Shown here piece by piece: positions 9,748 through 29,548 of a DNA stretch of 63,707 nt. Positions within the stretch are counted from its first letter, which is position 1. Every line of letters begins with the position of its first letter. Position numbers and translations under genes: made by a program. The DNA comes from Terriglobales bacterium. GTDB lineage: Bacteria > Acidobacteriota > Aminicenantia > Aminicenantales > Saccharicenantaceae. The notes below the pieces were generated by a model. That model did no database searches and had not been told where the DNA came from. It saw only the letters and a list, made by a program, of their open reading frames with translations. The stretch lies in assembly GCA_035543515.1 (NCBI GenBank), contig DATKJS010000044.1:1-63707 (forward strand). Direction: 5' to 3'.

Positions 9748-9775
9748 ACCCGACATGACTAGAACGAGGACGATC

Positions 9776-13900: not shown

Positions 13901-14055
13901 CCGTGGTGGTCGTCGGAGGGCTGATCTCATCAACGTTGCTGACGCTCCTCGTCCTGCCGGTTCTCTATGGCTGGTTCCGGAAGCGCGCGGGGAACGGGGG
14001 CCCTGCCGAGGGAGACCTCGAGGCCGGAACGGGGGAGAGCTGCGAGCTTGAATAA
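10900..14055 (+). CDS. czcA: CusA/CzcA-family heavy-metal RND efflux permease
   Basis: LPIDAFPDVTNIQV, SLGGLAICIGMIIDA, GTEFLPVMDEG, AVLNG, RLRPVLMTA. True start at the ATGA overlap with the czcB stop (10900), not 10435. Confidence 0.95.
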   Translation: MMIEKVIAFSLKERTLILVVLALVVGVGVYSFLTLPIDAFPDVTNIQVEVVATAPGLSPLEIEKFVTHPIEMGMRGLPGLHLMRSVTKYGISVVTLVFEDKVNIYFARQLVFQRLAEARDVMPEGVGIEMGPVATAMGEIYQYTLEGPEPADEAGRVARLTELRTLQDWVISAQLKSVPGVSEVNSFGGYIRQLQVIMDPDRLLKYGLSANAVYEAVKNNNQNVGGGFLDRHSEQFLIRGIGLIRSVGDISRIVLKSSGGVPVTIADVAEVRAGHAVRQGAAVKDGKKECVGGVVMLLRGENSRDVVARVEAKVAEINDSSLLPAGVRIEPYYKRSDIIVKSIGTVTGALAIGSLLVIIVLFLFLRSVRGALIVILALPLSALVTFTVMKTAGLTANLISLGGLAICIGMIIDATIIQVENVQRHLSAAGRGRSTVRDVFAAVLEVRKPSIFGELIIALTFLPIVSLRGYEGKMFSPLAFTVAIALLASLLLSIFVVPVLCSLLLKPGRGKESVLLRAAKRVYLPVLGFGLRRKGVVIGGAVLMLAAAVAVIPRLGTEFLPVMDEGAFDMDFQLLPGVSLDKALEVSKLVERKVMAFPEMAVIVGKTGQTGIAIEARGVDKTGYVGALRPRSEWTNAKTSPELMEKMRQAVADVPGMVISFSQPIQCRISELMEGTRAQVLVKVFGDDMDVLKSTAESIARVLSGVRGAKDILVEQISGQPYISIAVDRARIARHGINVRDVLEVIEIAVEGKPASLVYEESKSFDITTRFAENHRNSIEKLKTILIDAPGGYRVPLGELASVEAVEGPAQISRENGQRRVGIEMNIAGRDIGGFVKEARERVRREVMLAPGTYVSWGGQFENQQRAMGRLMVIAPAVIALIFFLLLVTFDSAKLALLVLLNLPFALIGGVFALLVSGLYLSVPASVGFIVLFGVAVLNGLVLVSCISQLQDCGVPVEEAVRKGAETRLRPVLMTASIAVFSLIPLLFATGPGSEIQKPLAVVVVGGLISSTLLTLLVLPVLYGWFRKRAGNGGPAEGDLEAGTGESCELE

Positions 14056-14149: not shown

Positions 14150-14210
14150 CCTTTTGGATTTGGCTCCGTCTTGTCCTTGGCCCCCTGTTTATAATAGAAT
14201 CTGCCGACCC

Positions 14211-15686
14211 ATGAAGTTCGACGCGCTATTGGCCAAGAAGTCCCTCGGGCAGCTGACCCGGGAAGCCTCCTCCGAGGCCTCCGGCCTGAAGAGGGTCCTC
14301 GGGCCGTGGCACCTCATCTTCCTCGGCGTCGGGGCCATCGTCGGCGCGGGCATCTTCGTCATGACCGGCCACGTCGCCGCCCAGTATTCCGGCCCGGCCG
14401 TGACCCTCTCCATCGTGCTCGCCGGCCTGACGTGCGCCTTCGCCGGGCTCTGCTACGCCGAATTCGCCTCGCTCATCCCCATCGCCGGCAGCGCCTACAC
14501 CTACGCTTACGCGACACTCGGCGAGATCTTTGCCTGGATTATCGGCTGGGACCTCATCCTGGAATACTCGGTGGGGGCTACGACGGTCGCGATCGGCTGG
14601 TCCGGGTACGTCGTCAGCTTTCTCAAGGGCATCGGCCTCAACGTCCCCGCCGCCCTGGCCGACGCGCCCTTCGCGTTCGACCCGAAGTCCGGCGCCTGGA
14701 CGAGGACCGGCGCCTGGATCAACCTTCCGGCCCTCCTGGTGATCCTCCTCATCACCTACGTCCTCGTGCGGGGCATCCGGGAGTCGGCGACGGTCAACTC
14801 GGTCATCGTCTTCCTCAAGATCGCCATCATCCTCATCTTCATCGGGGCGGGTCTCTTCTTCATCAAGCCGGGCCTGTGGAAGCCGTTCATCCCCCCGAAC
14901 CAGGGACAGTCCGGCTTCTTCGGCTGGAGCGGGATCCTCCGCGGGGCCGGGGTGATGTTCTTCGCCTACCTCGGCTTCGACGCCGTCTCGACGGCGGCCC
15001 AGGAGGCCAGGAACCCGAAACGCGACATGCCCATCGGCATCCTCGGCTCGCTCTTCGCCTGCACGGCCATCTACATCGTCTTCTCCCTCGTCCTCACGGG
15101 CGTCGTCCCCTACACCCAGCTCAACGTCCCCGCCCCCGTGGCCGTGGCCATCGACGCCATGCGGCTCTTCTGGCTCTCGCCCCTGATCAAGATCGCCGCC
15201 ATCATCGGCCTCATGTCGGTGATGATCGTCCAGCTCATGGGCCAGCCGCGGATCTTCTACACCATGGCCAAGGATGGGCTCCTGCCGCCGGCCGCGGCCC
15301 GGGTCCACCCGAAATACGGCACACCCTATGTTACGACGATCGTCACGGGCCTTGTCGTCAGCGTTGCGGCATCGCTCCTGCCCATGGGCATCGTTGGAGA
15401 GCTCGTCAGCATCGGGACGCTCTTCGCCTTCGCCATCGTCTGCAGCGGCGTCCTCGTCCTCCGCTACGCCCGCCCCGACATCCCCCGGCCCTTCAAGACC
15501 CCCCTCGTTCCGTTCGTCCCCCTCCTGGGCATTTTTTCCTGTGTCTACCTGATGACCCGCCTGTCCAAGGACACCTGGGTCCGCCTCATCGCCTGGATGG
15601 CGATCGGGCTCGTCATCTATTTCACCTACGGCATCCGCAAGAGCCGGCTGCGGCGTCCGCCGGCGGCCGGCCCGGATGCGACCTGA
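14211..15686 (+). CDS. APC-family amino acid permease (cationic amino acid/YfnA-like)
   Basis: [44 protein letters not shown]. Start ATG 14211. Confidence 0.92.
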
Positions 15687-15699
15687 CCGAGGAGGCCCC

Positions 15700-17202
15700 A
15701 TGAGCTCCAATCCCGCCCCCGCCCCTCCGGCCCCCCCCGCGGCCGGGGCCCGCGAGTTCAAGCGCGAGATGTCCCTCTTCGACTCCATGATGATCGTCAT
15801 GGGAGCGATGATCGGCTCCGGCATCTTCATCGTCAGCGCGGACATCGCCCGGACCGTCGGCTCGGCGGGCTACCTCCTGCTCGTCTGGTTCATCACCGGC
15901 GTCGTGACCATCATCGGCGCCCTGAGCTACGGCGAGCTGGCCGGGATGATGCCCCATGCCGGCGGCCTCTACGTGTACCTCCGCGAGGCCTACAACCCCC
16001 TGACCGGCTTCCTCTACGGCTGGACGACCTTCCTCGTCATCCAGACGGGGACGATCGCGGCCGTCGGCGTCGCCTTCGCCAAGTTCACCGGAGTCCTCAT
16101 TCCCTGGTTCCGCGAGGACAATGTCCTCGTGACCGTCCTCGGCCTGAAGGTCTCGGCCGCCCAGCTTCTGGCCATCGCCAGCATCGTCCTCCTGACCGCC
16201 CTCAACATGCGCGGCCTGAGGACGGGCAAGACGATCCAGGGCCTCTTCACCGTGACCAAGACGCTGGCGCTCACGGGGCTCATCCTGCTCGGGTTCATCT
16301 TCGGGGCCAACGCTGCGGCCGTCAAGGCCAATCTGGCCGGGTTCTGGAAGGCGAGCTGGACGCACCTCGCGAGCGGCGGCGGCATCGCCTCCGTCGAGCC
16401 GCTCTCGGGGCTGATGGTCGTGGCCGCGATCGGGGCGGCCATGGTCGGCTCGCTCTTCGCTTCGGACGAGTGGTACACGGTGACCTACATCGCCGGCGAG
16501 GTCAAGAACCCCAAGCGGAACATCCCCCTCAGCCTCGTCCTCGGGGCCGGCATCGTCACCCTCCTCTATTTCCTGGCCAACGTCGCCTACGTCACGATCC
16601 TGCCCGTCCACGGCACCCCGGGGGCGGCCGACGTCGTGGGACGGGGGATCCAGTTCGCCACGGCGGACCGGGTCGGCACGGCGGCCGCCTCGATGATCTT
16701 CGGCTTGCCGGCGGCCGTCATCATGGCGGTCCTGATCATGATCTCGACCTTCGGCTGCAACAACGGGCTGATCCTGTCCGGGGCCCGGGTCTATTACGCC
16801 ATGGCCAAGGACGGGCTGTTCTTCAACGCGACGGGATCGCTCAACAAGAAGTGCGTGCCGGGCACGGCTCTCGTCGTCCAGTGCGTCTGGGCCAGCCTGC
16901 TCTGCCTGTCCGGGAGGTACAGCGACCTCCTCGATTACGTCGTCTTCGCCGTCCTGATCTTCTTCGTCCTCATCGTCAGCGGCATCTTCATCCTGAGGAA
17001 GAAGAAGCCCGACGCCGAGCGCCCCTACAAGGCCTGGGGCTATCCCGTCGTCCCGGCCATCTATATCCTGGTCGCGGCGGCCATCGCCGTCGACCTCCTC
17101 GTCTTTAAGCCAAAGTACACGATCCCGGGCCTGGCCATCGTCCTTCTCGGCATCCCCGTCTATTTCGTCCGGAAGGCCCTGGCCAAGGCGCCCGCGGATT
17201 GA
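15700..17202 (+). CDS. APC-family amino acid permease (LAT/SteT-like)
   Basis: GAMIGSGIF, LSYGELAGMMPHAGG, AGEVKNPKRNIP, GARVYYAMAKDG. SD GGAGG before ATG 15700. Confidence 0.92.
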   Translation: MSSNPAPAPPAPPAAGAREFKREMSLFDSMMIVMGAMIGSGIFIVSADIARTVGSAGYLLLVWFITGVVTIIGALSYGELAGMMPHAGGLYVYLREAYNPLTGFLYGWTTFLVIQTGTIAAVGVAFAKFTGVLIPWFREDNVLVTVLGLKVSAAQLLAIASIVLLTALNMRGLRTGKTIQGLFTVTKTLALTGLILLGFIFGANAAAVKANLAGFWKASWTHLASGGGIASVEPLSGLMVVAAIGAAMVGSLFASDEWYTVTYIAGEVKNPKRNIPLSLVLGAGIVTLLYFLANVAYVTILPVHGTPGAADVVGRGIQFATADRVGTAAASMIFGLPAAVIMAVLIMISTFGCNNGLILSGARVYYAMAKDGLFFNATGSLNKKCVPGTALVVQCVWASLLCLSGRYSDLLDYVVFAVLIFFVLIVSGIFILRKKKPDAERPYKAWGYPVVPAIYILVAAAIAVDLLVFKPKYTIPGLAIVLLGIPVYFVRKALAKAPAD

Positions 17203-17219: not shown

Positions 17220-17411
17220 CTACTTCCTCTTGTCCGCGGCCAGGACGCCCGCGGCCATGTACTCCTTCGGGGAGATTTCCTGGACCCAGACGCGGATCGA
17301 TTCGAGCGGCGCGCCGATCGATTCGTGCACGGCCGTCGTGACCGAGGAGAGGAGGGCCCTCTTCTGTTCGTCCGTCCGGCCTTCCATCAGGTGGATCTCG
17401 ATGAGCGGCAT
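17220..17411 (-). CDS. 4-oxalocrotonate tautomerase family protein
   Basis: MPLIEIHLMEGRTDEQKRALL...SIRVWVQE: N-terminal Pro after Met, 63 aa, SD AAGGAG. The true start lies inside the longer ORF-track entry. Confidence 0.9.
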   Translation of the reverse strand: MPLIEIHLMEGRTDEQKRALLSSVTTAVHESIGAPLESIRVWVQEISPKEYMAAGVLAADKRK

Positions 17412-17592: not shown

Positions 17593-17940
17593 ATGGACAT
17601 CAGGACCCGGGACCACCAGGGCATCGTCGTGTTCGACATCGACGGGGAGGTCACCATCTCGACCATGCCGCAGCCGACCCTGCACCAGCTCATCAAGGAC
17701 CAGCTCGAGCGGGGGAAGCGGGACATCCTGCTCGACCTGAAAAAGGTCGATTTCATCGACAGCTTCGGCATCGGCGAGCTCCTGGCGAGCTACGTTTCGA
17801 CGCAAAACCTGGGGGGGAAGCTCAAGCTCTGCCACGTCTCCAGAAAACTCTTCCTCCTCTTCCAGATCACCAGGCTCGTCACCGTCCTCGAGATCTATGA
17901 GGATTGCGACCGCGCCCTGAAGAGCTTCGGCACGCCTTGA
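17593..17940 (+). CDS. STAS-domain anti-sigma-factor antagonist (RsbV/SpoIIAA-like)
   Basis: ILLDLKKVDFIDSFGIGELL with the conserved phospho-acceptor Ser (DS), GGKLKL, ITRL. Confidence 0.92.
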   Translation: MDIRTRDHQGIVVFDIDGEVTISTMPQPTLHQLIKDQLERGKRDILLDLKKVDFIDSFGIGELLASYVSTQNLGGKLKLCHVSRKLFLLFQITRLVTVLEIYEDCDRALKSFGTP

Positions 17941-17987: not shown

Positions 17988-20537
17988 ATGCACGCCTTCT
18001 TGCGCAGGCTGCGCGTCGACGTCCGGCCGGACGAGTCGCGGGCGGCGGCCTTCCTCTTCCTCTACTTCTTCCTCATCACGCTCACCTTCTCCGTCATCAA
18101 GACGGTCAAGGAAAGCCTCCAGATCAGCGTCAACCCGCGCTCGTGGTGGGTCTTCGACCTCGGCACGGCGGTGCTGATCGGCTTCGCCGTCGCCGTCAAC
18201 ACCAGGCTCCTCAACCGCCTGCCACGTCGGAAATACTCGTCGCTGACCCTAGGCTTCTCCGCCGGGTGCCTGGCCCTCTTTTGGTACGCCTTCGACCTCT
18301 ATCACCGGCGGATCTATCCCTTCCCGGTGCTGCTCGTGTTCGTCCAGAGCCACCTGAACCTCTTCATCTACGCCTTCAGCTTCTGGTCCGACGTCTTCAT
18401 CGCCATGACGATCACCCAGTTCTGGATCGCCGTCAACGACATCTTCCATCCCCACCAGGCCAAGCGGCTGGTCGGCTTCCTGGTGACCGGAGGACTCCTG
18501 GGCGGGATTGCGGGCTCGGCTATCGCCTGGAGCCTGCCCAAGCTCGTTGCCCCGCACTATCTCCTTCTTGTTTGCCCGGCCATCCTCCTCCTGATGATCG
18601 CCGTGGTCGGCCTCGTCCACGGCGAAGGGGAGAGGCTCCGGGGAGGGACCGAGGCCGGGTCTCGGCCGGCCGGCGCCGGCGTCGGCTTCCTGGAGAGCCT
18701 CCGGACGGTGCGCGGCGACCGCTATCTTCGCATCCTCGCCGGCGTCCTGGCCTCGGCCGTCCTCGTCGGGCAGATCATCAATTACCAGTTCAAGTTCGTC
18801 GTCAAGGCCCAGGGATGGAACGACGCGACACGGACCTCGTTCCTGGCGATGTTCTTTTCCGGCGTGCTCGTCGTCTCAACCCTCTTCCACCTGTTCGCCA
18901 CGGGCCGTGTCCTGAGACGCTTCGGCATCCGCGTGGCCCTGCTCGTGGCCCCGGTCGTCCTCATCCTCGGCACGGTGCCGGTCTTCTTCCTGACGATCGT
19001 GACGGCCGCCGCCGTGCCGACGGCGGCCGGCCTCCTCTGGGCCTCCCTCCTTCGCGGCGCGGACAAGCTCTTCGACACGACCATGAGCCAATCCGTGCGG
19101 GAGCTCCTCTACATCCCCATCCCGGCCGAGATCAAGTACAAGGCGAAGGTCCTCATCGACATGTCCGTCAACAAGTTCGCCCTCGGCTTCGGCGCGGTCC
19201 TCTATTGGACCCTCTACCGGGCGCTGTCGTTCGCGATGAAAACGCCGGAGGAGCAGGTCCGGACCCTCGGCGTCTTCGTCGTCGCCTTCGCCCTTCTCTG
19301 GATGGGCCTTATCTGGATCATCCACGACGAGTACCTCGGGAAGGTCAAGGCGGACCTGGCCAGGAAATGGCAGGACGGCCATAAGGTCGTCGACGCGAAC
19401 GTCGACATCGGGCTGACGCGGCGCATCGTCGACACCATCCAGAGCCGGGAGAGAAGCGCGACCCTTTACGTCATGAACCTTTATGGGCTCGTCCAGAAGG
19501 AGAAGCTGACGGCGGAGCTCATGGAGGCCATCGGCCTCAGGGGCGAGGAGCTCAAGGCGCGGTCCATGGACGCCCTCCTGGGCGTCGACGGCGAGCCCGC
19601 GTTCCAGGGGATCGAGGACATCATCACCGACAAGGAGTTCGACTCCGTCGTGCGGGAGGTCATGGCCCTGCCGGTCTACAAGGACGTGATGGAAAAGCAG
19701 ATCGGCGACCTCGTCACCGGGAAGAGCGCCTCGGAGGTCGCCCGGATGGAGGCGGCCAAGGCCCTGGGCCTGATGGAGCCGACGCCCGCCGTCATCCGCG
19801 AGCTCGGCCGGCTCCTCCGGGACCCTTCGCCCGAGGTCCTCAACTACGCCCTTCACAGCGCCGCCGCCCATCTCCGGAAGGAGCACGTCCCCGCGATCGT
19901 CGACCTCCTCGAGAACCCGATGACCAGGCAGCTCGCCCAGGATACCCTGGCCGCCTACGGACCGCGGGTCGAGGACGTCCTGAAGAAGCGCCTCCAGGAC
20001 CGGGAGGGTCCTCCCGAGGTCCGCCGGGCCATCCCCGACGTCCTGGCCCGATTGGGGAACCAGAAGGCGGCCGACGCCCTGGTCGCGGAGCTCGTGGCCG
20101 GCGACGAGGTTCTGGAGGCCGGCCTCATCGAGGCCCTCTATAAGGTCCGCGCGAACCATCCGCAGGCCAGCTTCAAGAAGAGGCGGATCGCGGCCGCCGC
20201 CCTCTCCCTGGCCCGCCGAAATGCCGAGGACTACCTGGCCGCGGCCGAGGCTGGGGCCGGCCGGGAGCCCGGGCCAGAACGGCAGGCGGCCATCGACCTC
20301 CGGACCAAGCTCCTGTTCGACCTCCTGACGCTCATCGCCCCGCCCGAGGACGTCGTCAAGGCCTACCAGAACATCCTCCGGGGGACGAAGAAGTCCGTCG
20401 ACTACTCGCTCGAGCTCCTCGACAACATCCTCAACGGGGACCTCAAGGAACTCCTCTTCCCCCTCATCGAGAGCCTGCCGCCGGAGGAGCGCTGCCGCCG
20501 CCTGAGGAAGCCCCTCCGGGCCCCGCGGCCCCGCTAG
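17988..20537 (+). CDS. NTT/TLC-family nucleotide (ATP/ADP) transporter fused to C-terminal HEAT repeats
   Basis: NTT motifs FWIAVNDIFHPHQAKRL..F...GG.LGG and RELLYIPIPAEIKYKAKVLID; C-terminal HEAT-like helices (EAAKALG, LLRDPSPEV, RRAIPDVLARLG). Alternative start TTG 17937. Confidence 0.85.
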   Translation: MHAFLRRLRVDVRPDESRAAAFLFLYFFLITLTFSVIKTVKESLQISVNPRSWWVFDLGTAVLIGFAVAVNTRLLNRLPRRKYSSLTLGFSAGCLALFWYAFDLYHRRIYPFPVLLVFVQSHLNLFIYAFSFWSDVFIAMTITQFWIAVNDIFHPHQAKRLVGFLVTGGLLGGIAGSAIAWSLPKLVAPHYLLLVCPAILLLMIAVVGLVHGEGERLRGGTEAGSRPAGAGVGFLESLRTVRGDRYLRILAGVLASAVLVGQIINYQFKFVVKAQGWNDATRTSFLAMFFSGVLVVSTLFHLFATGRVLRRFGIRVALLVAPVVLILGTVPVFFLTIVTAAAVPTAAGLLWASLLRGADKLFDTTMSQSVRELLYIPIPAEIKYKAKVLIDMSVNKFALGFGAVLYWTLYRALSFAMKTPEEQVRTLGVFVVAFALLWMGLIWIIHDEYLGKVKADLARKWQDGHKVVDANVDIGLTRRIVDTIQSRERSATLYVMNLYGLVQKEKLTAELMEAIGLRGEELKARSMDALLGVDGEPAFQGIEDIITDKEFDSVVREVMALPVYKDVMEKQIGDLVTGKSASEVARMEAAKALGLMEPTPAVIRELGRLLRDPSPEVLNYALHSAAAHLRKEHVPAIVDLLENPMTRQLAQDTLAAYGPRVEDVLKKRLQDREGPPEVRRAIPDVLARLGNQKAADALVAELVAGDEVLEAGLIEALYKVRANHPQASFKKRRIAAAALSLARRNAEDYLAAAEAGAGREPGPERQAAIDLRTKLLFDLLTLIAPPEDVVKAYQNILRGTKKSVDYSLELLDNILNGDLKELLFPLIESLPPEERCRRLRKPLRAPRPR

Positions 20538-20552
20538 GCGGGACCGGCCCGG

Positions 20553-20581
20553 TTGCATTGCCGCGCCTTGTCCTTTAGAAT
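20553..20581 (+). promoter_or_regulatory. sigma70-type promoter for the FHA-GAF-PP2C / RsbW pair
   Basis: TTGCAT-17 nt-TAGAAT. Confidence 0.55.
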
Positions 20582-20598
20582 GGGGGGCGGGAATCCCG

Positions 20599-22275
20599 AT
20601 GGCGGACCTGTTCATCTATCCCAAGGGCGGGGACGCGTTCGTCTTCGCCCTCGGCGCCCAGAAAGTCACCGCCGGCCGGGCCGCGTCCTGCGACATCCCG
20701 CTCTCCGACCAGTACACCTCCGGTTGCCACGTCGCCTTCGTCCCCAAGGACCGCGGCTACGCCGTCCAGGACCAGGGGAGCAAGAACGGGACTTACGTCA
20801 ACGGCCGGCGGATCAGCGGTGAGGTGGCCCTCAGGCGGGGCGACGAGGTCGTCGTCGGCGAGACCAAGATCATCTTCGACCGCGAGTTCCAGACGAACGT
20901 CAAGATCGTCGACGGCACGACCTTCACCCACAGCTCGAACACGATCATCAGCGTCCCGGACATCGTCCGCAAGCCTCCGACGGCGGTCTTCCTCCAGCCG
21001 GTCGCCGGCCGTCCCGAGCCGGGGCGCTATCAGCAGGACCAGAAGTTCCTGGGCGTGCTGAGCGAGGTCAGCCAGGCCCTCATCTACCACATGCCCCTCG
21101 ACAGGCTCCTGGATCACATCATGGATCTCATCACCGGGAACATCCCCATGGATCGGGGCGTTCTCATGCTCCGGGAGGGCCCGGACGGCGAGCTCGTCCA
21201 CAAGGTCGTCCGCGTCTATGACAGCCCCTTGCGCAGCCAGAGCATCCTCGTCAGCCGGACGATCGTCCAGACGGCCCTGGACAGGAACTCGTCCATCCTC
21301 ATCTCGGACATCCAATCGGAGGCGGAGCTCCGGGGACAGGTCTCGGTCGTCCAGGGCCGGATCCACTCGGCCATGTGCGTCCCCCTCTGGAACGGCGACG
21401 CCATCATCGGCCTCATTTATTGCGACCGGGCCGCCCTCCACGGCCCCTTCACCGAGGACGACCTGAGGCTCCTGACGCTCCTCGCCAACCTCGCCGCCAA
21501 CAAGATCGAGAACGCCAGGCTGATCGAGCAGGAACTGGCAAAGGAACGGATCGAACAAGAGCTCATAACGGCGGCCCAGATCCAGAAGAATTTCCTGCCC
21601 AAGGAGGACCCCGTCTTCGAGCCCTTCGACATCAGCGGCGGCACGCGGGCCTGCCGTTATGTCGGCGGGGACTACTACGATTTCATCCCCGTCGACGCGG
21701 ATCGCCTGGGCCTCGCCATCGCCGACGTCTCCGGGACGGGCGTCAGCGCGGCCCTCCTCATGGCTTCGCTCCGGGCCTCGCTCCACTCCAAGATCGGCCT
21801 GACGCGGGACCTGGCCCGGCTGGCCGCCGAGCTCAACGACGACGTCCACAAGAGCTCCGACTCCAACTCCTTCATCTCCTTCTTCTTCGGCCTCCTCGAC
21901 CGCGGGCGGGGGGAGGTCGAGTACGTCAACGCGGGGCATAACCCGCCGCTCGTCGTCGACGCCGCCGGCGGAGTCCGCACCCTCGAGAGCACGGGCTTCT
22001 GCCTGGGGATGTTCCCGGCCGTGAGCTACGAGACGCGGACCCTCCGCCTCGCGCCGGGCGACATCCTGTGCCTTTTTACCGACGGCATCGTCGAGAGCCG
22101 CGACGCGGACAGGGAGGAGTTCGGGGACGAACGGCTGGCCCGCCGCCTTCGGGAATCCGCGGACCTCCCGGCCCGCGACATCAGGGACCGGATCTACGAG
22201 GACGCGTTCGCCTTCTCATCCTGCGTCGAGCCGGGCGACGACATGACCGTCGTCGTCGTCAAGAGGGGCACCTGA
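20599..22275 (+). CDS. FHA-GAF-PP2C (SpoIIE/RsbU-family) Ser/Thr phosphatase
   Basis: FHA GR...SxxH...SKNGTYVNG; GAF SAMCVPLW..D.IIGLIYCD; PP2C VGGDYYD, IADVSG.G..AAL, FTDGIVE, DDMT. Confidence 0.93.
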   Translation: MADLFIYPKGGDAFVFALGAQKVTAGRAASCDIPLSDQYTSGCHVAFVPKDRGYAVQDQGSKNGTYVNGRRISGEVALRRGDEVVVGETKIIFDREFQTNVKIVDGTTFTHSSNTIISVPDIVRKPPTAVFLQPVAGRPEPGRYQQDQKFLGVLSEVSQALIYHMPLDRLLDHIMDLITGNIPMDRGVLMLREGPDGELVHKVVRVYDSPLRSQSILVSRTIVQTALDRNSSILISDIQSEAELRGQVSVVQGRIHSAMCVPLWNGDAIIGLIYCDRAALHGPFTEDDLRLLTLLANLAANKIENARLIEQELAKERIEQELITAAQIQKNFLPKEDPVFEPFDISGGTRACRYVGGDYYDFIPVDADRLGLAIADVSGTGVSAALLMASLRASLHSKIGLTRDLARLAAELNDDVHKSSDSNSFISFFFGLLDRGRGEVEYVNAGHNPPLVVDAAGGVRTLESTGFCLGMFPAVSYETRTLRLAPGDILCLFTDGIVESRDADREEFGDERLARRLRESADLPARDIRDRIYEDAFAFSSCVEPGDDMTVVVVKRGT

Positions 22276-22297
22276 GGGGCCGCGGGAACGGGCCGGC

Positions 22298-22711
22298 ATG
22301 AGCTCCGGGGCAAAGACTCTGACGGTCAAGGCGGACCTTGCGGCCATCGACCGGGCCCGCGAGTTCCTGCGGGACAACCTGCGCGGTCTCTCCCTGGCCG
22401 AGGAGGACGTCCTGAGGATCGAGCTCTCCCTCCACGAGATCCTCGTCAACATCGCCCGCTACGCCTACCCGAAGGGGGACGGCGAGATGTCCCTCCGCGT
22501 CTGGCGCGAGGACGGCACGCTCCGCATGGAGTTCCGCGACCGCGGCGTCCCCTTCAACCCCGCCGAGCGGCCCGCCCCGGACATCGAGGAGAGGATCCGC
22601 CGGGGGGCGAAGGGCGGGCTCGGCATCCACCTCTTCAAGACGCTCATGGACGGCTACTCGTACCGTCGGGAGGGTGCGGAGAACGTTCTGACGGTCTTCA
22701 AAAAGGTCTGA
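22298..22711 (+). CDS. RsbW/SpoIIAB-type anti-sigma factor Ser kinase (HATPase_c_2)
   Basis: ELSLHEILVNIARYAY (N box), FRDRGVPFNP (G1), GGLGIHLFKTLMD (G2). Confidence 0.92.
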   Translation: MSSGAKTLTVKADLAAIDRAREFLRDNLRGLSLAEEDVLRIELSLHEILVNIARYAYPKGDGEMSLRVWREDGTLRMEFRDRGVPFNPAERPAPDIEERIRRGAKGGLGIHLFKTLMDGYSYRREGAENVLTVFKKV

Positions 22712-22720
22712 GCGCCGCGG

Positions 22721-23554
22721 TCAGTAGAGGACGTTGGCCTGCCCGTTCTTCTTGACCAGCTTATCGATCTCGCCCAAGATGAGGTCCCGGCGGATGAGGA
22801 CGGCCTTGATCTCGTCGTCAGTCAGGTAGTCGCCCGTGATGCCCTTGATCCCTTCGAAGGTCAGCGTCTTGACCTTGTCGACGATGGCCCGCGGCAGCTC
22901 GCTCATGAGCTTCGGGCCCTCAGGGTGTTTCTCGGTATAGATGAGGGCCTTAACGAATTTGCCGGAGGAGCGGAAGGACCGGGAATGGTCGATGAGAATC
23001 ATCCGCCAGTCCTTGGTGATGAGGATCTGGTTCTGGTGGCGGTCCTCGTTGGCGATGAGGTTGTCGAAGAACCTCTGCAGGTACGTGTCCCGGTTCCAGC
23101 CGAAGACCTTGTAGGACGGCATCTTGATCTTCTTCTCCTCCCGCTCCTTTAGGGAGATGCAGTCGGTGATCCAGTACTGGAGGGAGCCCCGGTCGCCCTG
23201 GAAGCGCCGCTCGATGGTCGGCGAGACCATGTGGAGCCCGAGCCACTCGCTCATGCGGTAGGCGCAGATCTCGTACTGCCAGCCCTCGACATAGCCCTGC
23301 ATGCGGCCCTCGGCGCTCTTCCACAGGGCGTCATGGGTGACGTCGCCCTTCCGGAGCGTCAGCCTCCAGGGGCTGGTCACGGACTCGGGGCCGACCATGT
23401 GGGACTGGTTGACGATGTCCGCCGTCTTGAGGAACTCCTCCCATTGGGGGAACTGACCGAGCTCGTCGGCCGTGAACTGGGCCAGGAGCGCGGGCGCCCG
23501 GAGAAGGGCCAATCCCGCGACGATGAGGACCACCGTTGCTTTCTTCATTTTCAC
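22721..23554 (-). CDS. Secreted atypical kinase, type II PI4K/FAM20C-like fold (paralog 1)
   Basis: Signal peptide; ALWK, YEICAY, PTIER, GSLQYW, FDNLIANEDRHQNQIL, LIDHSRSF. Confidence 0.75.
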   Translation of the reverse strand: MKMKKATVVLIVAGLALLRAPALLAQFTADELGQFPQWEEFLKTADIVNQSHMVGPESVTSPWRLTLRKGDVTHDALWKSAEGRMQGYVEGWQYEICAYRMSEWLGLHMVSPTIERRFQGDRGSLQYWITDCISLKEREEKKIKMPSYKVFGWNRDTYLQRFFDNLIANEDRHQNQILITKDWRMILIDHSRSFRSSGKFVKALIYTEKHPEGPKLMSELPRAIVDKVKTLTFEGIKGITGDYLTDDEIKAVLIRRDLILGEIDKLVKKNGQANVLY

Positions 23555-23597
23555 CCTCCCGCGAGATCGATTCCTGCCGCGGACGGCCGCGGTCGTC

Positions 23598-24446
23598 TCA
23601 ATCGTAGAGGACGTCCGCCTCCCCCCTGGCCCGGACCATGCCGTCGATCTCTTTGATGAGGAGGTCGCGGCGGGCGAGGAGCGAGCGGATCTCCCGGTCC
23701 GTCAGGGTCTCGCCCACGGCAGTTCCGACGGACTCGAAGGACAGCGCCTTGACCTTTTCATAGAACCAGCGGGGGAGCCGGCTGAAGAGGAACGGGTGCC
23801 CGTCCTGGGCTTTCTTGATGCCGTCCGCCCCGAACATGAGCTTCTCAGTGAACTCCTTGGTCGACCGAAAGGCCCGGGAGTGGTCGATGAGGATCGTCCG
23901 CCAGTCCTCCGTGTAGAGGACGTTCTGCTGGGTCCGGTCCTCGTTGGCGATGAGGCTGTCCCAGGCCCGGGTCAGCCACTTCATCCTCTCGATCCCGGCC
24001 TCGGCTTCCTTGGGGATGGCGATTCCCTGCTCGGCGACCTTGAGAAGGCTGTACTTGTTCTCGGCCCAGAGCGACAGGGCGCCCTTCTTCCCCTGGAACT
24101 CGCGCTCGACCGCGGCGGGGACCATGTCCAGCCCGATGAGCTTGTCGAGGCGGTAAGCGGCGATCTCGTACTGCCAGCCCTCGAGGAACCCGTACATCAT
24201 GCCGCTCGGGTTCTTCCAGAAGGCCCTGCTCTCGAAATCGCCCTTCCTGAGGGTCAGCCGGAAGGGCTTGGTGACGCCCTCGCCTGCCGGCTCGGCCTTG
24301 ACGATCTCGGCCGTGAGGAGGAACTCCTCCATCTGCGGCCGCCGGGCGACCTCCTCGGGCTTGAACTGGCCGCGAAGATCCCCGGGCCTGACGACGAAGG
24401 CCAGGAAAAGAACGACGAGCGCCGCTTCACGCTTCATGGATGTCAC
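23598..24446 (-). CDS. Secreted atypical kinase, type II PI4K/FAM20C-like fold (paralog 2)
   Basis: Signal peptide; AFWK, YEIAAYRLD..IGL.MVP, GALSLW, WDSLIANEDRTQQNVL, LIDHSRAF. Confidence 0.75.
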   Translation of the reverse strand: MTSMKREAALVVLFLAFVVRPGDLRGQFKPEEVARRPQMEEFLLTAEIVKAEPAGEGVTKPFRLTLRKGDFESRAFWKNPSGMMYGFLEGWQYEIAAYRLDKLIGLDMVPAAVEREFQGKKGALSLWAENKYSLLKVAEQGIAIPKEAEAGIERMKWLTRAWDSLIANEDRTQQNVLYTEDWRTILIDHSRAFRSTKEFTEKLMFGADGIKKAQDGHPFLFSRLPRWFYEKVKALSFESVGTAVGETLTDREIRSLLARRDLLIKEIDGMVRARGEADVLYD

Positions 24447-24469
24447 CCCGACCGCTTTCTGTTGCCCGG

Positions 24470-24498
24470 ATTATAGGACCCTTCCTCCCGGAAATCAA
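24470..24498 (-). promoter_or_regulatory. sigma70-type promoter for the tandem kinases
   Basis: Minus strand TTGATT-17 nt-TATAAT, overlapping the upstream NTT stop codon. Confidence 0.6.
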
Positions 24499-25997
24499 GC
24501 CGCGGGTGCCGGATTCCCGTCGGCCGCGGCCTTCCGCCTCTTGTATTCCCCGACGATCTTGAAGCAGAGCGCGATGAGGACGAGGACGACGACGACGTTC
24601 AGCATGGCGTAGCGTTCGATCTTCAAGCCCAGCAGCTGTGTCCCGGCCAGCACGGCCAGGGCCGAAACCGTGTCGCCGCCCCTGACGAAGAAGGTGTCGA
24701 TGGCGGCCTTGGCCTTGTATTTTTCCTCCCTTGGCGTGACCAGGAACAGGGCGGCCTTGGTCGTGTTCTGGAGCGAATAGTCGGTGCCGTTCTCCAGGGA
24801 CTTGACCCAGCGGACGAGGACGAGGACCGCCCCGAAAGAGATCAGGGCATACCCCCCTAGGGCGATCAACGGCAGGAAGAAGAGCGCTCCCCCGACCCCG
24901 ACCCACTTGAAGATGCGCGAAACAAGGAAGAGCTGGATGATCAGGGCGACGAGGTTCGTCAGGAGCTGATAGTTCATGAACGCCCGGTGGATCGATTTCT
25001 CCATGGCCGCGCCGGGCGCGTTCTCCTGGGGAACGGGTGCGCCCCGGGCGCTATCCCCAGCGGGGGAGGCGGCCCCCGGCAGAGCCGCCGTCATTGGCCT
25101 GGAGGCCGTCTTCGAGAGCTCGGTGTTGACCGTGACGGCCGAGATGACGTACTCGCCCGTGGCATTGACGAAATTGTAGAGGCCGATCAGGAGGGCGATG
25201 AAGAGCAGGTAGCGGCTCTTGAACACGAGCCGAAAACCGCCCCCGGCCTTCAGCGGCTGGGCCTGGGCGCGGGCCTTCTCCTCGGAGCCGGCGAGCCCCT
25301 TTTCCCGGTCATCGAGGGTTCTCCGGACATCCCGGCGATGGATGTATCTGGCCAGGCCGATACAGATGAGGAGGACAGTCCCTGCGATGAGCATGAGCTT
25401 GAATTCCCACCGTCCGCCCAGGAGGTCCCTGAGCTTGATGACCACGGGCAGCGTCCCGACGACGCCTCCCAGCGTCGCGCCGAAGGCGATGAGGGGAAAG
25501 GTCCGCTTTCCCTGCTCGTCGGAATAGAGGTCGTTGGCGAAACCCCAGAACTGGGCGATCACGAAATAATTGAAGATGCCGATCCAGACGAAGAAGGCGA
25601 TCCCCATGGTCTTGACGGGGATGCGGCAGAAGCTGAGGCCGTAGAAGATCACGATATTCGAGATGAAGAACAGGGTCGTCCAGGTGATGAGGACGTGCCG
25701 GGGGACCTTGGAGGCCAGGCGGCTGAAGGCCTTGATCACGAAGATGAAGAGGACGGCCTGGGCGCCGCCCAGACAGCTCTTGACCACGGCGGAGTTCTTG
25801 TCGACGAGAAGCAGCGCCTCACGCAGGGGTTTGAGGATGTAATAGGCGACGAGGAGGAGGAAGACATTCAGCGCGAGGAGGAGCGCCTTGGGCGCCTCGC
25901 CCGGCCGGATGTCGGCGAAAAGCCGGAGGAACCCGTAGAGCAGACGTTCCCCCGGCGACCCCGTTCCCGACGCCGTCCTCGCTCCGGCTTCCGCCAT
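24495..25997 (-). CDS. NTT/TLC-family nucleotide (ATP/ADP) transporter, stand-alone
   Basis: YYILKPLRE, FWGFANDLYSDEQGKRTFPLIAFGATLGG, DYSLQNTTKAALF...EKYKAKAAIDTFFVRGGD. Start ATG 25997 with SD GGAGG. Confidence 0.88.
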   Translation of the reverse strand: MAEAGARTASGTGSPGERLLYGFLRLFADIRPGEAPKALLLALNVFLLLVAYYILKPLREALLLVDKNSAVVKSCLGGAQAVLFIFVIKAFSRLASKVPRHVLITWTTLFFISNIVIFYGLSFCRIPVKTMGIAFFVWIGIFNYFVIAQFWGFANDLYSDEQGKRTFPLIAFGATLGGVVGTLPVVIKLRDLLGGRWEFKLMLIAGTVLLICIGLARYIHRRDVRRTLDDREKGLAGSEEKARAQAQPLKAGGGFRLVFKSRYLLFIALLIGLYNFVNATGEYVISAVTVNTELSKTASRPMTAALPGAASPAGDSARGAPVPQENAPGAAMEKSIHRAFMNYQLLTNLVALIIQLFLVSRIFKWVGVGGALFFLPLIALGGYALISFGAVLVLVRWVKSLENGTDYSLQNTTKAALFLVTPREEKYKAKAAIDTFFVRGGDTVSALAVLAGTQLLGLKIERYAMLNVVVVLVLIALCFKIVGEYKRRKAAADGNPAPAA

Positions 25998-26029: not shown

Positions 26030-27940
26030 TCAGAATAGGACCGCGGCCTCCCCCCGGGCCTCGACCTGCGTCCGGATGGCGCGGAGGATCGACCCCACCC
26101 TCGCCTCGAGGGCCCGGACCTCCTCCTCGTTCAGGTAGGGGGCGACCAGGCGGCGAACCCCGGCCTTGTCCCAATCGACGAGTTTCCGGTAAAAGGCCCG
26201 CGAGCACCTCTGGATCTCGCACCCGGGGACCGTCTCCGTCACGGGCGCGAAGGCCCTGGAGAAGTCGACCGCCCAAACCCTCTCCGTATTCCTCTGGATG
26301 AGGATGTCACGCTCTCGCTCGGGGCCGCAGGTGTCGGCGACGAGGTTGATGAAGACCCTCAGGTCGGCCATGGTCCGCTCGAAGGCCTCCGGGTCGCCGA
26401 TCGGGAGTCCCTGGCCCTTCCGGGCCGTCTCGGAGAAGGCGTCCTCGACGAAGATCTGGAGGGAGCCCGGGTAACCGTTGATCGTCCGCTCGATGAGCGG
26501 CGGGATGAGGCCCAAGCCGAGGGCCTTGTCGAGGGCGTAGGCGGCGAGCTCGTACTCATAGCTGTCGGCCAGCGGGTCCGGCCGGCGGCGGTCGATGTAC
26601 TTGAACTGGGCCCAGTGCTTGGCCCCGCCGGCCTCCAGCCGGACCTTCCAGGGGTCGGTCCGACCTGCCTCGCCGGGGATGACGAAGGCCGGCGTCGCCG
26701 TCTGCAGGAACCGTTCGACCTCGTCCGCGGCCCCCGGCCCGTTCGCCGTCGGCGAACCGCCGGGAGCCGGCGGCGCCGCTTCCTCGGCATCCGTGTAGTG
26801 GTCGAGCGTCCCGCCGTTGATGATGAGGGCATAGAGACGGCCGCCGTAGAGGGTGAAGCCGATCCCGGTATCGATCATCCAGAGCTTCCCGTGGAAGAGG
26901 GGGATGATGTCCCCGGCCGGCGCGATCGGGCTCCGCGTTTCCCCCATGGCCATGAAGTTGTGGCCGATGACCATCTTCGTCGCCTTGAGGTTGGCCAGGA
27001 TCCGGTCCATGTCCTCCTGGGAGATGGTGTTCTCCATCTGGCGGAGCCACAGCGGGCCTTCGGAGTTGTAGACGAGCTTGGGACGGAACTCCTGCATGAG
27101 GACCCGGGAGTTCGGTCCTCGGAGGGCGAACATCCCCAGTTCCAGCCGGAACGCGTCGTTGAGGTCCTTGAGCTTCCAGGTCGAGAACTGGCGGTTGACC
27201 CCGGCGTGGGCGAAGACGACGTCGTTGATCTTGATGACGACGTTCTTCGTCAGGAGCCATTTTCCATAGGTGTGGTTGAAGTTCTCGGTATAGGCCTGGC
27301 CGGCCTCGTCCATGCCCCTGACCCTCTTGGAGGTCTCGAGGATCTTCTCCCAGAAGGCGCGGTAGCCGGCGTCCTTGGCGAAGTCGGGACCCCCGGGCCC
27401 CAGCCTGGCCCGCTCGGCGGCCGGCAGGCCCGACAGGTATTGCTTCGCCCGGGCCTTCTTGAAGTCGTCGGGAAGGAACGCGTAGAACTGGTCGACGAAG
27501 ACGTACTGCGGATAGTTCAGGGCGATGCCCGTGATCGTCGACTCTTCGTGGTTGCCGAGCAGGACGTGGACCATGCCGCCCGCGGCCGCGGCCTCTTTCT
27601 CCAGGCGCATGAGGAAGTCGAAGATGTCCCTGGCCTTGTCGCCCCGGTCCAGGACGTCGCCAATCTGCACGAGGTGGGTCCTTCCGCCGGTCCAGTGAAG
27701 ACGCTCGTCGACGAGGCCGACCTTCGACGCCTTGAGGATGGTCACGAAGTTGTCGAAGTCCCCGTGGAGGTCGCCCACGGCCACGATCCGCTCGACGCCG
27801 GTCCATTCGCAGGGGATGTCGGCGGCGCGGGTGGCCGGGGCCAGGGCGAGAAGCGCGGCGCCGAGGGACAGGGCGAAGGCGAAACGCCCTCGAAGCCGCC
27901 GGCAAGGTCCGCCCCTTTCAAATGAGAACATCGACGCCAT
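26030..27940 (-). CDS. Secreted Shelph-type metallophosphoesterase fused to a degenerate PI4K-like kinase domain
   Basis: Signal peptide; GDLHGD, GDVLDRG, GNHE, HAG, GHN, IDTG. C-terminal domain AQFKY...YELAAYALD..LGL..IPP..ER...GSLQ...VDFSRAF is homologous to the neighbouring kinases. Start may be 27931. Confidence 0.85.
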   Translation of the reverse strand: MASMFSFERGGPCRRLRGRFAFALSLGAALLALAPATRAADIPCEWTGVERIVAVGDLHGDFDNFVTILKASKVGLVDERLHWTGGRTHLVQIGDVLDRGDKARDIFDFLMRLEKEAAAAGGMVHVLLGNHEESTITGIALNYPQYVFVDQFYAFLPDDFKKARAKQYLSGLPAAERARLGPGGPDFAKDAGYRAFWEKILETSKRVRGMDEAGQAYTENFNHTYGKWLLTKNVVIKINDVVFAHAGVNRQFSTWKLKDLNDAFRLELGMFALRGPNSRVLMQEFRPKLVYNSEGPLWLRQMENTISQEDMDRILANLKATKMVIGHNFMAMGETRSPIAPAGDIIPLFHGKLWMIDTGIGFTLYGGRLYALIINGGTLDHYTDAEEAAPPAPGGSPTANGPGAADEVERFLQTATPAFVIPGEAGRTDPWKVRLEAGGAKHWAQFKYIDRRRPDPLADSYEYELAAYALDKALGLGLIPPLIERTINGYPGSLQIFVEDAFSETARKGQGLPIGDPEAFERTMADLRVFINLVADTCGPERERDILIQRNTERVWAVDFSRAFAPVTETVPGCEIQRCSRAFYRKLVDWDKAGVRRLVAPYLNEEEVRALEARVGSILRAIRTQVEARGEAAVLF

Positions 27941-28053: not shown

Positions 28054-29409
28054 ATGAGCAATCGACTTGGCGATGGAATCCGCGCCGGCTCGAGGGCGGC
28101 GGGGCTCGGAGCGGCCGCGCTCCTCCTCCTGATCCTGGGTCTGGGCGGCTGTTCGCCGGAGCGACGGCCGGCCGCCCCGGCCGCGCCGGTCCGGGTGAGG
28201 ACAGGACTCGAGGTCTTCCTCGAAAGAAACCTCGGGCTGGTCGAGGGAAAGCGCGTCGGGCTCATCACCAACCCGACTGGCATCGACGCCGCGTTCCGGT
28301 CGACCGTCGACCTCCTCGCCCGCAACCCCAAGGTCAAGCTCGTCGCCCTCTACGGGCCCGAGCACGGCGTGCGGGGTGACGCCCAGGCCGGGGAATACGT
28401 CCCGTACTATTTCGACAGGAAGGCCGGGCTGCCCGTCTTCAGCCTCTACGGCCAGTCGATGAAGCCCGAGCCGGGCATGCTCAAGAGGATCGACGAGTTC
28501 ATGCGCTCCTACGACACCCGGTCCGCCGGGAAGGTCCCGGAGAAGGACATGGTCCAGGGGGTCGACGTCATGATCTACGATATCCAGGACGTCGGCACGC
28601 GGGTCTACACCTACATCGCGACGATGGCCTACGCCATGCAGGCCTGCGCGGAGAACGGCATCGATTTCATCGTCCTCGACCGGCCCGACCCGATCGGCGG
28701 CGCGGACGTCGAGGGCCCGGTCCTCGAGTATCCCGCCTACAGCTCGCCCGTCGGGCTCTATCCCGTGCCCGAGCGCTTCGGCATGACCATGGGCGAGCTG
28801 GCCCGGCTGTTCAACGACCGGTTCCTGGCGAAGAAGGCGAACCTGACCGTCATCCCGATGGAGGGCTGGACGCGGGCGATGTGGTTCGACCGGACGGGGC
28901 TGCCCTGGGTCATGCCGTCGCCGAACATGCCGACGCTCGACACCGCGGCCGTCTATCCCGGGTTCGTCGCCTTCGAGGGGACGAACGTCTCCGAGGGGCG
29001 GGGGACGACCCGGCCGTTCGAGCTCTTCGGCGCCCCGTGGGTCGACGGCGACGACCTCGCGGCGAAGCTCAACGGGCTCGGCCTCCCCGGGGTCATCTTC
29101 CGCGGCGCCTGGTTCACGCCCACGTTCTCCAAGTTCGCCGGCCGGCTCTGCGGCGGCTGCCAGGTCCAGGTCATCGACCGCGCCGCCTTTCGCTCCTTCG
29201 AGGCCTTCCTCCAAGTCGTCAAGGCCATCCGCGACGCGGCCCCCGACAAGTTCGAGTTCCACAAGGACTACTTCGACAAGGTCATGGGGACGTCCCGCGT
29301 GCGAGAGGCCCTCGAGGCCGGGACCCCGGTGAAGACGATCGTCGACGGCCTCAAGCCGGGCCTCGACGCCTTCCTGCAGCTGCGCAGACCCTATTTGCTC
29401 TATAAGTAA
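28054..29409 (+). CDS. namZ: Exo-beta-N-acetylmuramidase NamZ family (DUF1343)
   Basis: GKRVGLITNPTG, PEHGVRG, YDIQDVGTRVYTYIATM, LDRPDP, SPNMPT, SEGRGTTRPFE. Confidence 0.92.
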   Translation: MSNRLGDGIRAGSRAAGLGAAALLLLILGLGGCSPERRPAAPAAPVRVRTGLEVFLERNLGLVEGKRVGLITNPTGIDAAFRSTVDLLARNPKVKLVALYGPEHGVRGDAQAGEYVPYYFDRKAGLPVFSLYGQSMKPEPGMLKRIDEFMRSYDTRSAGKVPEKDMVQGVDVMIYDIQDVGTRVYTYIATMAYAMQACAENGIDFIVLDRPDPIGGADVEGPVLEYPAYSSPVGLYPVPERFGMTMGELARLFNDRFLAKKANLTVIPMEGWTRAMWFDRTGLPWVMPSPNMPTLDTAAVYPGFVAFEGTNVSEGRGTTRPFELFGAPWVDGDDLAAKLNGLGLPGVIFRGAWFTPTFSKFAGRLCGGCQVQVIDRAAFRSFEAFLQVVKAIRDAAPDKFEFHKDYFDKVMGTSRVREALEAGTPVKTIVDGLKPGLDAFLQLRRPYLLYK

Positions 29410-29474: not shown

Positions 29475-29548
29475 AGGCACGGTTGACCTGCCCCGCCTTT
29501 TCCTTTAGAATGAATGCCTTTCCGATTTCGACCGAGGAGCGACGAGAG

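Follow-up and report, generated by a model that had tools for sequence, protein, structure and literature searches.

Carriers of the NTT (ATP/ADP translocase) family are listed for 24 bacterial groups, Aminicenantes among them, by Major, Embley & Williams (2017, Genome Biol Evol 9:480; PMC5381601); they occur in many free-living bacteria, and the table of that survey has three sequences from Acidobacteria and one from Aminicenantes. In that survey, proteins with an NTT core followed by HEAT repeats (NTT-HEAT) formed one widespread clade, often beside or fused with a cyclic-nucleotide-binding domain, to which no function was assigned; literature using the term NTT-HEAT gave no function either. 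Here we describe two NTT genes, NTT1 (an NTT-HEAT fusion) and NTT2 (without such a tail), that lie in one gene cluster on a 63.7-kb contig of an Aminicenantes metagenome-assembled genome (MAG); the window denotes this whole contig, the stretch of DNA that was analyzed. A preliminary description of the stretch had held that NTT-HEAT fusions are known in free-living bacteria without a settled role, in agreement with the survey. Its surprise at NTTs in a free-living bacterium was misplaced, because of the 24 published groups and because 131 of the 301 Acidobacteriota genomes sampled here contain an NTT-family gene. The gene finding itself is a new member of a published family; what appears to be unpublished is the conserved association of NTT carriers with kinases of a Fam20-like type that are predicted to be exported, with a PPP phosphatase and with a partner switch.

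Other described systems resemble parts of the cluster. Characterised translocators, namely Chlamydia pneumoniae NTT1 (PDB 9j3n), Arabidopsis NTT1 (9j3j/9j3m) and Rickettsia Tlc1, import ATP into parasites or plastids by counter-exchange against ADP and phosphate (Pi). Shewanella-like PPP phosphatases are represented by PDB 1V73 and 2Z72. RsbV-RsbW-RsbU of Bacillus and SpoIIAA-AB-E are partner switches, and the kinases Fam20C and Fam20B work, together with the pseudokinase Fam20A, with ATP in the lumen of the endoplasmic reticulum and Golgi. In the textbook view the periplasm is free of ATP, which is the reason given for envelope processes drawing on other donors or on energy relayed from the inner membrane. 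A hypothesis paper of 2014 argued that ATP-requiring periplasmic enzymes imply movement of ADP/ATP across the membrane in some prokaryotes, and named no gene (PMC4289276). Searches of the literature on bacterial Fam20, secreted kinases and the periplasm found no paper on exported proteins of the kind described below, and a Fam20 review did not discuss bacterial homologues.

Our analysis suggests, with a rough probability of 0.45, that the two NTT genes are parts of one conserved envelope module rather than tools of energy parasitism, and that the carriers would exchange ATP for ADP and Pi, NTT1 being gated.

The two carriers and their operons

The cluster consists of two convergent operons whose ends lie 9 nt apart, with same-strand intergenic gaps of 22-61 nt in both. 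The plus-strand operon has the order STAS, NTT1, FHA-GAF-PP2C and RsbW-like kinase, and the minus-strand operon, read 5' to 3', has the order MPE (metallophosphoesterase), NTT2, KL1 and KL2 (KL, kinase-like), as follows.

17593-17940, plus strand: STAS-domain protein of the RsbV/SpoIIAA-like anti-anti-sigma type, 115 amino acids (aa), without signal peptide (Pfam STAS, 53 bits)
17988-20537, plus strand: NTT1, NTT-HEAT fusion, 849 aa (Pfam TLC, MFS_1, HEAT_2)
20599-22275, plus strand: FHA-GAF-PP2C (SpoIIE/RsbU-type) phosphatase, 558 aa, cytoplasmic (Pfam FHA 58, GAF 56 and SpoIIE 165 bits)
22298-22711, plus strand: RsbW/SpoIIAB-like serine kinase, 137 aa (Pfam HATPase_c_2, 92 bits)
22721-23548, minus strand: KL2, predicted exported Fam20/PI4KII-like atypical kinase, 275 aa (AlphaFold2, Foldseek, profile)
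23598-24437, minus strand: KL1, predicted exported paralogue of KL2, 279 aa (alignments; profile match at 23604-24437)
24495-25997, minus strand: NTT2, TLC/NTT carrier without tail, 500 aa (Pfam TLC)
26030-27940, minus strand: MPE, predicted exported two-domain metallophosphoesterase, 636 aa (Pfam Metallophos)

The preliminary description had named both NTT genes, and the two open reading frames scored above the gathering score (21 bits) of Pfam TLC (PF03219), NTT1 with 41 bits (E = 1.4e-10) and NTT2 with 50.6 bits (E = 1.7e-13). The two motif blocks quoted there are present in both carriers, as FWIAVNDIFHPHQAKRLVGFLVTGG and KYKAKVLID in NTT1 and as FWGFANDLYSDEQGKRTFPLIAFGATLGG and KYKAKAAID in NTT2. 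NTT1 joins a 12-transmembrane TLC/NTT core (approximately residues 1-470) and C-terminal HEAT repeats in one polypeptide, and NTT2 lacks a tail. The claimed length of about 380 aa for the NTT1 tail was borne out, as residues 470-849 (approximate start; nt 19395-20534) matched HEAT/alphaRep; within this tail, Pfam HEAT_2 scored 35 bits at residues 663-745, and positions 578-755 of the NTT-HEAT profile matched alphaRep/HEAT proteins. NTT1 also matched the general MFS_1 model (39 bits). The tail is expected to be cytoplasmic, given that the full length of the core can be aligned to canonical 12-transmembrane NTTs, and it should then be within reach of soluble partner-switch proteins. The described settings of the genes were also correct: NTT1 is flanked by the STAS gene (17593-17940) and the FHA-GAF-PP2C gene (20599-22275), and NTT2 by the MPE and KL1 genes, whose predicted products begin with N-terminal signal peptides.

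Homologue searches returned 463 relatives of NTT1, with orthologues of 845-875 aa, and 4206 of NTT2, whose identity across Aminicenantes was 70-89%; the NTT2-type family comprises 6328 clusters at 50% identity. Identity to characterised translocators was about 16-18%, and a single-sequence search of the PDB with NTT2 reached 9j3n at E = 0.012 only, so that profiles were needed. The NTT2-type profile matched the whole 12-transmembrane core of 9j3n (E = 1e-23) and of Arabidopsis NTT1 (E = 3e-17), the next MFS carrier being SLC37A4 at an E of only 1e-3. The NTT-HEAT-type profile likewise matched the whole core of 9j3n (E = 4e-35) and Arabidopsis NTT1 (E = 9e-29), and no other MFS protein in the PDB fell below E = 1. 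The characterised translocators and the present carriers are thus homologous over the entire core and have the blocks FW.FAN[DE]...KR and K.KAK/GKAAID in common. The AlphaFold2 model of NTT2 was poor (pLDDT 56.6, pTM 0.54; shallow alignment at 70-89% identity), and the top two Foldseek matches of this low-confidence model, 9j3n (E = 1e-3) and 9j3m (E = 1e-2; TM-score 0.40), were weak. Judged by sequence, NTT1 and NTT2 are real, divergent members of the NTT family and are far closer to ATP/ADP translocators than to other solved MFS carriers.

A tree was calculated from 51 NTT2-type and 37 HEAT-fused cores with C. pneumoniae NTT1 as outgroup and as the sole characterised sequence. The NTT2 type formed one clade (SH-aLRT 98) nested among HEAT-fused lineages, with C. 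pneumoniae NTT1 on a branch of 4.2 changes per site; such a tail-less clade resembles the 'reverted' clade of the published survey (PMC5381601). NTT1 is also like the NTT-HEAT proteins of that survey in combining a TLC/NTT core with a C-terminal HEAT domain in a free-living host, and in adjoining a gene with a small-molecule sensor domain. It differs in its company, since cyclic-nucleotide-binding domains are reported there, whereas NTT1 is accompanied by a full partner-switching set, and the predicted exported kinases and phosphatase of the present cluster are not described in that work.

Partner-switching genes and predicted exported enzymes

The STAS protein, the HATPase_c_2 kinase and the PP2C phosphatase, encoded in one operon, constitute a complete partner-switching set with the NTT-HEAT gene in its middle. 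The phosphorylatable Ser of the STAS protein lies in the motif FIDSFGIG, and the Ser of the corresponding DSFG/DSYG motif was kept in 43 of 45 orthologues. In the RsbW-like kinase, whose gene follows the PP2C gene, completes the operon and had been missed in the preliminary description, the N-box, G1 box and DxGxPF box are conserved in the orthologues. The set resembles RsbV-RsbW-RsbU and SpoIIAA-AB-E in these components and their shared operon, but differs from them in that the phosphatase carries FHA and GAF input domains, an NTT-HEAT gene lies in the operon, and no sigma factor gene is found in the cluster (every open reading frame between 17220 and 27940 was accounted for). Because an NTT-HEAT gene is present in the operon instead of a sigma factor gene, the tail of the transporter suggests itself as the output of the switch.

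KL1 and KL2 belong to no Pfam family and gave only weak matches to PI3_PI4_kinase, HipA_2 and the SCO1664 family. A single-sequence PDB search with KL2 returned nothing meaningful, and a profile was needed. The AlphaFold2 model of KL2, based on 52 homologues, reached a pLDDT of 87.3 and a pTM of 0.85, and its top Foldseek matches were the beta and alpha forms of type II phosphatidylinositol 4-kinase (PI4K) with a probability of 1.0 and E = 4e-7, followed by PI3K, Vps34 and PI4KB. Comparison of the KL profile with Fam20 proteins gave E-values of 1.3e-10 for Fam20A, 2.8e-6 for Fam20B, 3-5e-6 for Fam20C and 5.8e-6 for C. elegans Fam20, as against 0.04 for PI4KII beta. The blocks EIAAY.LD..LG...VPPTV and FDNLI.NEDRH...LIDHSRSF of the KL family are shared with Fam20 in the form EIAA[YF].LD..L....VPPTV and FD.LI.N.DRH...D..R.F.

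Kinase motifs were conserved as the Lys, the helix-C Glu, DR-x-x-N and D-H/F-S/G with the metal-binding Asp, which in KL2 correspond to K79, E95, NEDRHQN (D171, R172) and LIDHSRSF (D189). Among 52 sequences, K79, E95, R172 and D189 were invariant and D171 was kept in at least 90%; N169 and D189 were invariant in the wider KL set. KL1 is 45% identical to KL2 and retains the catalytic loop as NEDRTQQN, together with LIDHSRAF.

MPE begins with a signal peptide, which is followed by a Shewanella-type PPP phosphatase domain and a C-terminal KL-like domain. The PPP domain matched PDB 1V73 and 2Z72 (cold-active protein-tyrosine phosphatase) at E = 3e-30, and the GDxHG, GDxxDRG and GNHE motifs of these enzymes are kept as GDLHGD, GDVLDRGD and GNHEES. 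Unlike the Shewanella-like enzymes, MPE is fused to a degenerate KL domain and shares its operon with an NTT carrier. No 5'-nucleotidase C-terminal domain was detected by Pfam, and a weak similarity to ApaH, a diadenosine tetraphosphate (Ap4A) hydrolase, was seen in NCBIfam. The C-terminal domain matched KL queries in relatives and its catalytic loop is degenerate, features of what is probably a pseudokinase.

An N-terminal hydrophobic window was found in 141 of 147 KL and 50 of 51 MPE orthologues, as opposed to 2 of 43 (STAS), 1 of 66 (RsbW) and none of 35 (PP2C) for the regulators. KL2 has the signal peptide MKKATVVLIVAGLALLRAPALLA followed by QF, with an A-x-A/QF cleavage pattern, some homologues have a lipobox instead, and KL1 has an N-terminal hydrophobic segment. 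The KL proteins and MPE are accordingly predicted to be located outside the cytoplasm. Tat export of MPE was considered on account of an RRLRGRF stretch and rejected; this stretch is not kept in the orthologues, and Sec export is therefore more likely. The "exported enzymes" mentioned in the preliminary description can now be specified as two predicted exported kinases and one predicted exported phosphatase with a probable pseudokinase domain.

The likeness to Fam20 thus comprises the profile matches, the predicted departure of the proteins from the cytoplasm, and the pairing of a putatively active kinase with a degenerate domain at the C-terminus of MPE, an arrangement reminiscent of Fam20C and Fam20A. 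KL proteins differ from the Fam20 kinases in being bacterial and much smaller (275 aa), and Foldseek ranks type II PI4-kinases first.

Conserved linkage and co-occurrence

Three contigs at approximately 50% identity contained the same cluster, one of them without NTT2 and with all other parts kept. A scan of species-representative genomes returned 557 KL relatives, of which the best 80 loci were all from Aminicenantes. Linkage was counted in 50 species-level loci of at least 14 kb, centered on KL2, with parts scored within 10 kb. Any NTT gene was present in 46 of the 50 loci, the NTT2 type in 43 and a HEAT-fused NTT in 37, and MPE and RsbW were found in 45 and 44, respectively. Two gene orders were found, which differ in the side of the KL operon on which the STAS-NTT-HEAT(-PP2C) unit lies, the second order having it displaced to the opposite side; RsbW adjoins KL2 in convergent orientation in both. 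Since both orders hold the same parts, the cluster has been kept together through rearrangement.

NTT-HEAT genes also lie beside KL and PPP genes in four other families of Acidobacteriota. The first of these loci (L016) contains PPP, KL, a 1104-aa NTT-HEAT gene and an NTT2-type gene. In the second (L023; G046:C23, 9356-14878), a PPP gene followed by five tandem KL genes is divergent from PP2C-NTT-HEAT-STAS, with no NTT2-type gene nearby. The third (L024) has a PPP-KL fusion divergent from NTT-HEAT, and in the fourth (L025) a pair of NTT-HEAT genes has three KL genes at its flanks. The tandem genes of L023 represent a strong expansion of the predicted exported kinase family.

These data bear on the explanation that nothing more than shared location in a slowly rearranging stretch of Aminicenantes genomes joins the NTT genes to the partner switch and to the KL-MPE operon. 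Genes for a tautomerase, NamZ and GlnA are equally conserved beside the cluster though unrelated to it, and a single class supplies most of the 80 loci, as synteny alone would predict. The same parts are nevertheless adjacent in two different gene orders, and their association is seen again, between other flanking genes, in four further families and extends to whole genomes, as detailed below, which leaves synteny alone a slim chance.

Co-occurrence was analyzed in 301 Acidobacteriota genomes of 1.9-8.8 Mb. An NTT-family gene was found in 131 (base rate 44%) and KL in 75. All 75 KL genomes had an NTT gene, and KL was found in none of the 170 NTT-free genomes (hypergeometric P without phylogenetic correction, 4e-35 by genome and 2e-25 by genus). 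In the class itself, families without NTT were also without KL and vice versa, and KL was present in 31 of the 38 genomes with a strong NTT2-type match. That NTT2 is always in an operon with kinases proved untenable: in other families, NTT2-type genes at 40-46% identity mostly have unrelated neighbors (a GGDEF sensor, adenylate cyclase, sigma-54 activator, inositol-phosphate synthase, transposase and FGE-sulfatase). Carriers fused to HEAT repeats show a tighter link to KL, as does the comparison of whole genomes.

A different role for the carriers would be nutrient scavenging, in which they import nucleoside tri-, di- or monophosphates (NTP, NDP, NMP), NAD or dinucleoside polyphosphates released in peat or sediment, and MPE and the KL proteins process extracellular nucleotides ahead of uptake. 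Import is the role of every characterised NTT (Major et al. 2017, PMC5381601), the habitat is organic-rich wetland and peat, many NTT-bearing genomes lack KL, and the weak ApaH-like similarity of MPE would fit as well. The closest solved relative of MPE is, however, a PPP protein phosphatase rather than a 5'-nucleotidase, the genome makes purines and CTP itself, and scavenging leaves exported kinase-fold domains with intact catalytic motifs without a role and the perfect nesting of KL in NTT-bearing genomes unexplained. We therefore regard it as unlikely.

Some further loci were noted in these scans. Two loci (L026, G268:C18; L027, G134:C1) contain divergent pairs of very long NTT-HEAT genes, with open frames of about 920 and 1270-1370 aa, and lack KL genes within 8 kb; further domains, such as a cyclic-nucleotide (cNMP)-binding domain, may account for the extra length. 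A locus with the KL1-KL2-RsbW arrangement typical of Aminicenantes (L047) is filed as 'Candidatus Hydrothermarchaeota archaeon', and many contigs of that kind are filed as 'uncultured Eubacteriales'; these labels are probably binning or labelling errors in public records.

Proposed ATP exchange, source genome and flanking genes

In the envelope module that we favor, NTT1 and NTT2 would act as counter-exchangers, carrying cytoplasmic ATP out and periplasmic ADP and phosphate back, in the direction opposite to that used by parasites. KL1 and KL2 would phosphorylate envelope targets with the exported ATP, and MPE would remove the phosphate marks set by them. Such a periplasmic kinase/phosphatase cycle would yield exactly ADP and Pi, the counter-substrates bound in plastid NTT1 according to the title of PDB 9j3m. 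The proposed mechanism is that of the characterised translocators, with the difference that these import ATP into parasites or plastids, whereas outward transport in a free-living host is proposed here. NTT1 would serve as a regulated valve, the partner switch acting on its HEAT tail instead of on a sigma factor, and ATP export through NTT1 would follow cytoplasmic signals. In the Bacillus partner switch the kinase step depends on the ATP level; a switch of this kind could therefore match ATP export to the energy state and to FHA/GAF signals. By analogy, the Fam20 system and the proposed KL system both rely on a nucleotide carrier in the bounding membrane, which for KL would be of the NTT family and not, as for Fam20, of the SLC35 family. 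More broadly, we tentatively propose that free-living diderm Acidobacteriota may use ATP-fuelled reversible phosphorylation in the periplasm, with NTT carriers exporting the ATP and one of them HEAT-gated by an energy-sensing switch. The preliminary description had suggested a role in export or exchange for periplasmic enzymes; this idea gained from the conserved linkage to the predicted exported kinases and phosphatase and from the genome-wide co-occurrence, and nucleotide transport and its direction are the parts of it that we infer.

If true, the view of an ATP-free periplasm would be overturned for a large group of bacteria living in soil and sediment. NTT-HEAT proteins, a family catalogued in 2017 with further members in cyanobacteria, Chlamydia and oomycetes, would gain a first function. 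Fam20, a kinase of the animal Golgi, would then have relatives at work in bacterial envelopes, and bacteria would possess a counterpart of the kinase system of the eukaryotic secretory pathway. The proposal would also bear on the origin of ATP/ADP exchange in a free-living cell, a prerequisite for the origin of organelles. In any case the role of NTT-HEAT in free-living bacteria becomes a directly testable hypothesis.

Several points weigh against this proposal. ATP is small enough to leak through general porins, and periplasmic ATP would therefore be costly to maintain. No RNA runs containing the stretch were found. The association P-values carry no correction for phylogeny, some close relatives have a KL-MPE operon without NTT2 (L005, L006, G207), 56 of the 131 NTT-bearing genomes lack KL, and stand-alone NTT2-type genes in other families have unrelated neighbors; the last two observations indicate that NTTs have other roles as well. 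Against NCBIfam TIGR00769 (NTP/NDP exchange transporter), NTT1 and NTT2 scored 35.2 and 42.1 bits, far below the cut-off of 387 bits, and in the tree both carriers lie on long branches outside the characterised NTT clade, so that the substrate is not inferable by orthology. As for a grouping with non-nucleotide MFS carriers, which the preliminary description had considered, both proteins are closer to NTTs in the profile searches, and in the tree they fall outside the characterised clade. In addition, the divergent Simkania NTT4 failed at nucleotide transport (Major et al. 2017, PMC5381601).

The same divergence (35-42 versus 387 bits, and the long branch to C. pneumoniae NTT1) would suit carriers of a non-nucleotide anionic solute that is tied to the KL/MPE pathway (for example phosphate, a phosphorylated sugar or the head group of a lipid), or an NTT1 that is mainly a membrane sensor (transceptor) or a scaffold anchoring the partner switch. 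HEAT repeats serve as scaffolds for protein binding, and the general MFS_1 model matches NTT1 as well. The survey (PMC5381601) assigns no function to the NTT-HEAT clade and notes that Simkania NTT4 did not move nucleotides. On the other hand, the signature blocks FW.FAN[DE]...KR and K.KAK..ID are kept in both carriers and no non-NTT MFS carrier came near in the profile searches; moreover, the phosphate donor for exported kinases outside the cytoplasm would be left unexplained. These variants appear rather improbable to us.

The source genome is an Aminicenantes MAG of 2.99 Mb with a completeness of 96% and a contamination of 3.9%, and a genome scan found NTT1 and NTT2 as its only TLC genes. 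It encodes purM (416 bits) and pyrG (787 bits), and thus its own purine and CTP synthesis, and two adjacent rotary-ATPase catalytic subunits. The stretch is present in wetland, peat and soil metagenomes. All named relatives of the cluster proteins are Candidatus Aminicenantes or Acidobacteria MAGs, the nearest record being an Aminicenantes MAG with a KL2 identity of 91%, and the cluster is shared with Candidatus Saccharicenans subterraneus.

These features decide on classical energy parasitism, in which a host-dependent bacterium would import host ATP. The family name and the smallish 3.0-Mb genome would speak for it. A reduced symbiont had been raised as a caveat in the preliminary description; with purM, pyrG and rotary ATPase in a 96% complete genome from wetland and peat metagenomes, this genome is not reduced, and host dependence was rejected. 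The same NTT-family genes are found in Acidobacteriota with genomes as large as 8.8 Mb, and the products encoded in the window include amino-acid permeases, glycoside hydrolases, peptidases and an RND efflux pump. The probability left to energy parasitism is negligible, and we consider it excluded for practical purposes.

Outside the two operons, the following features were recorded around and within the cluster.

8422-14055, plus strand: complete tripartite RND efflux set (OEP outer-membrane factor, HlyD-type adaptor, AcrB-type pump)
14154-15686 and 15676-17202, plus strand: tandem pair of APC-family amino-acid permeases with an 11-nt overlap, directly upstream of the cluster
17220-17408, minus strand: 4-oxalocrotonate-tautomerase-family gene, 62 aa, divergent from the STAS gene
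24470-24498, minus strand: sigma-70-like promoter match in the NTT2-KL1 spacer (TTGATT, 17 nt, TATAAT; 10/12), a consensus match only
28054-29409, plus strand: homologue of NamZ (exo-beta-N-acetylmuramidase) with the lipoprotein signal LGLGGC, divergent from MPE
29483-31120, plus strand: glutamine synthetase (GlnA), after NamZ

The OEP-HlyD-AcrB set indicates a diderm envelope. The promoter match suggests that KL1-KL2 may have a promoter of their own, which would fit the relatives without NTT2 at that position. The tautomerase gene was found at the same position in every related contig examined (L004, L005 and L007) and may be part of the cluster, and the permease pair is also present in L004. 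NamZ lies beside MPE in 25 of 50 related loci; this adjacency might point to a sugar of the cell wall as a kinase target, or it may reflect synteny alone. The window further encodes sugar kinases, peptidases and a GH106 rhamnosidase. At the end of the contig (60001-63707) the G+C content drops from approximately 65% to 56% over a stretch with genes for an aldo/keto reductase, a flavodoxin and a transposase of the Mutator family (IS256-like); this end is probably an insertion sequence that broke the assembly.

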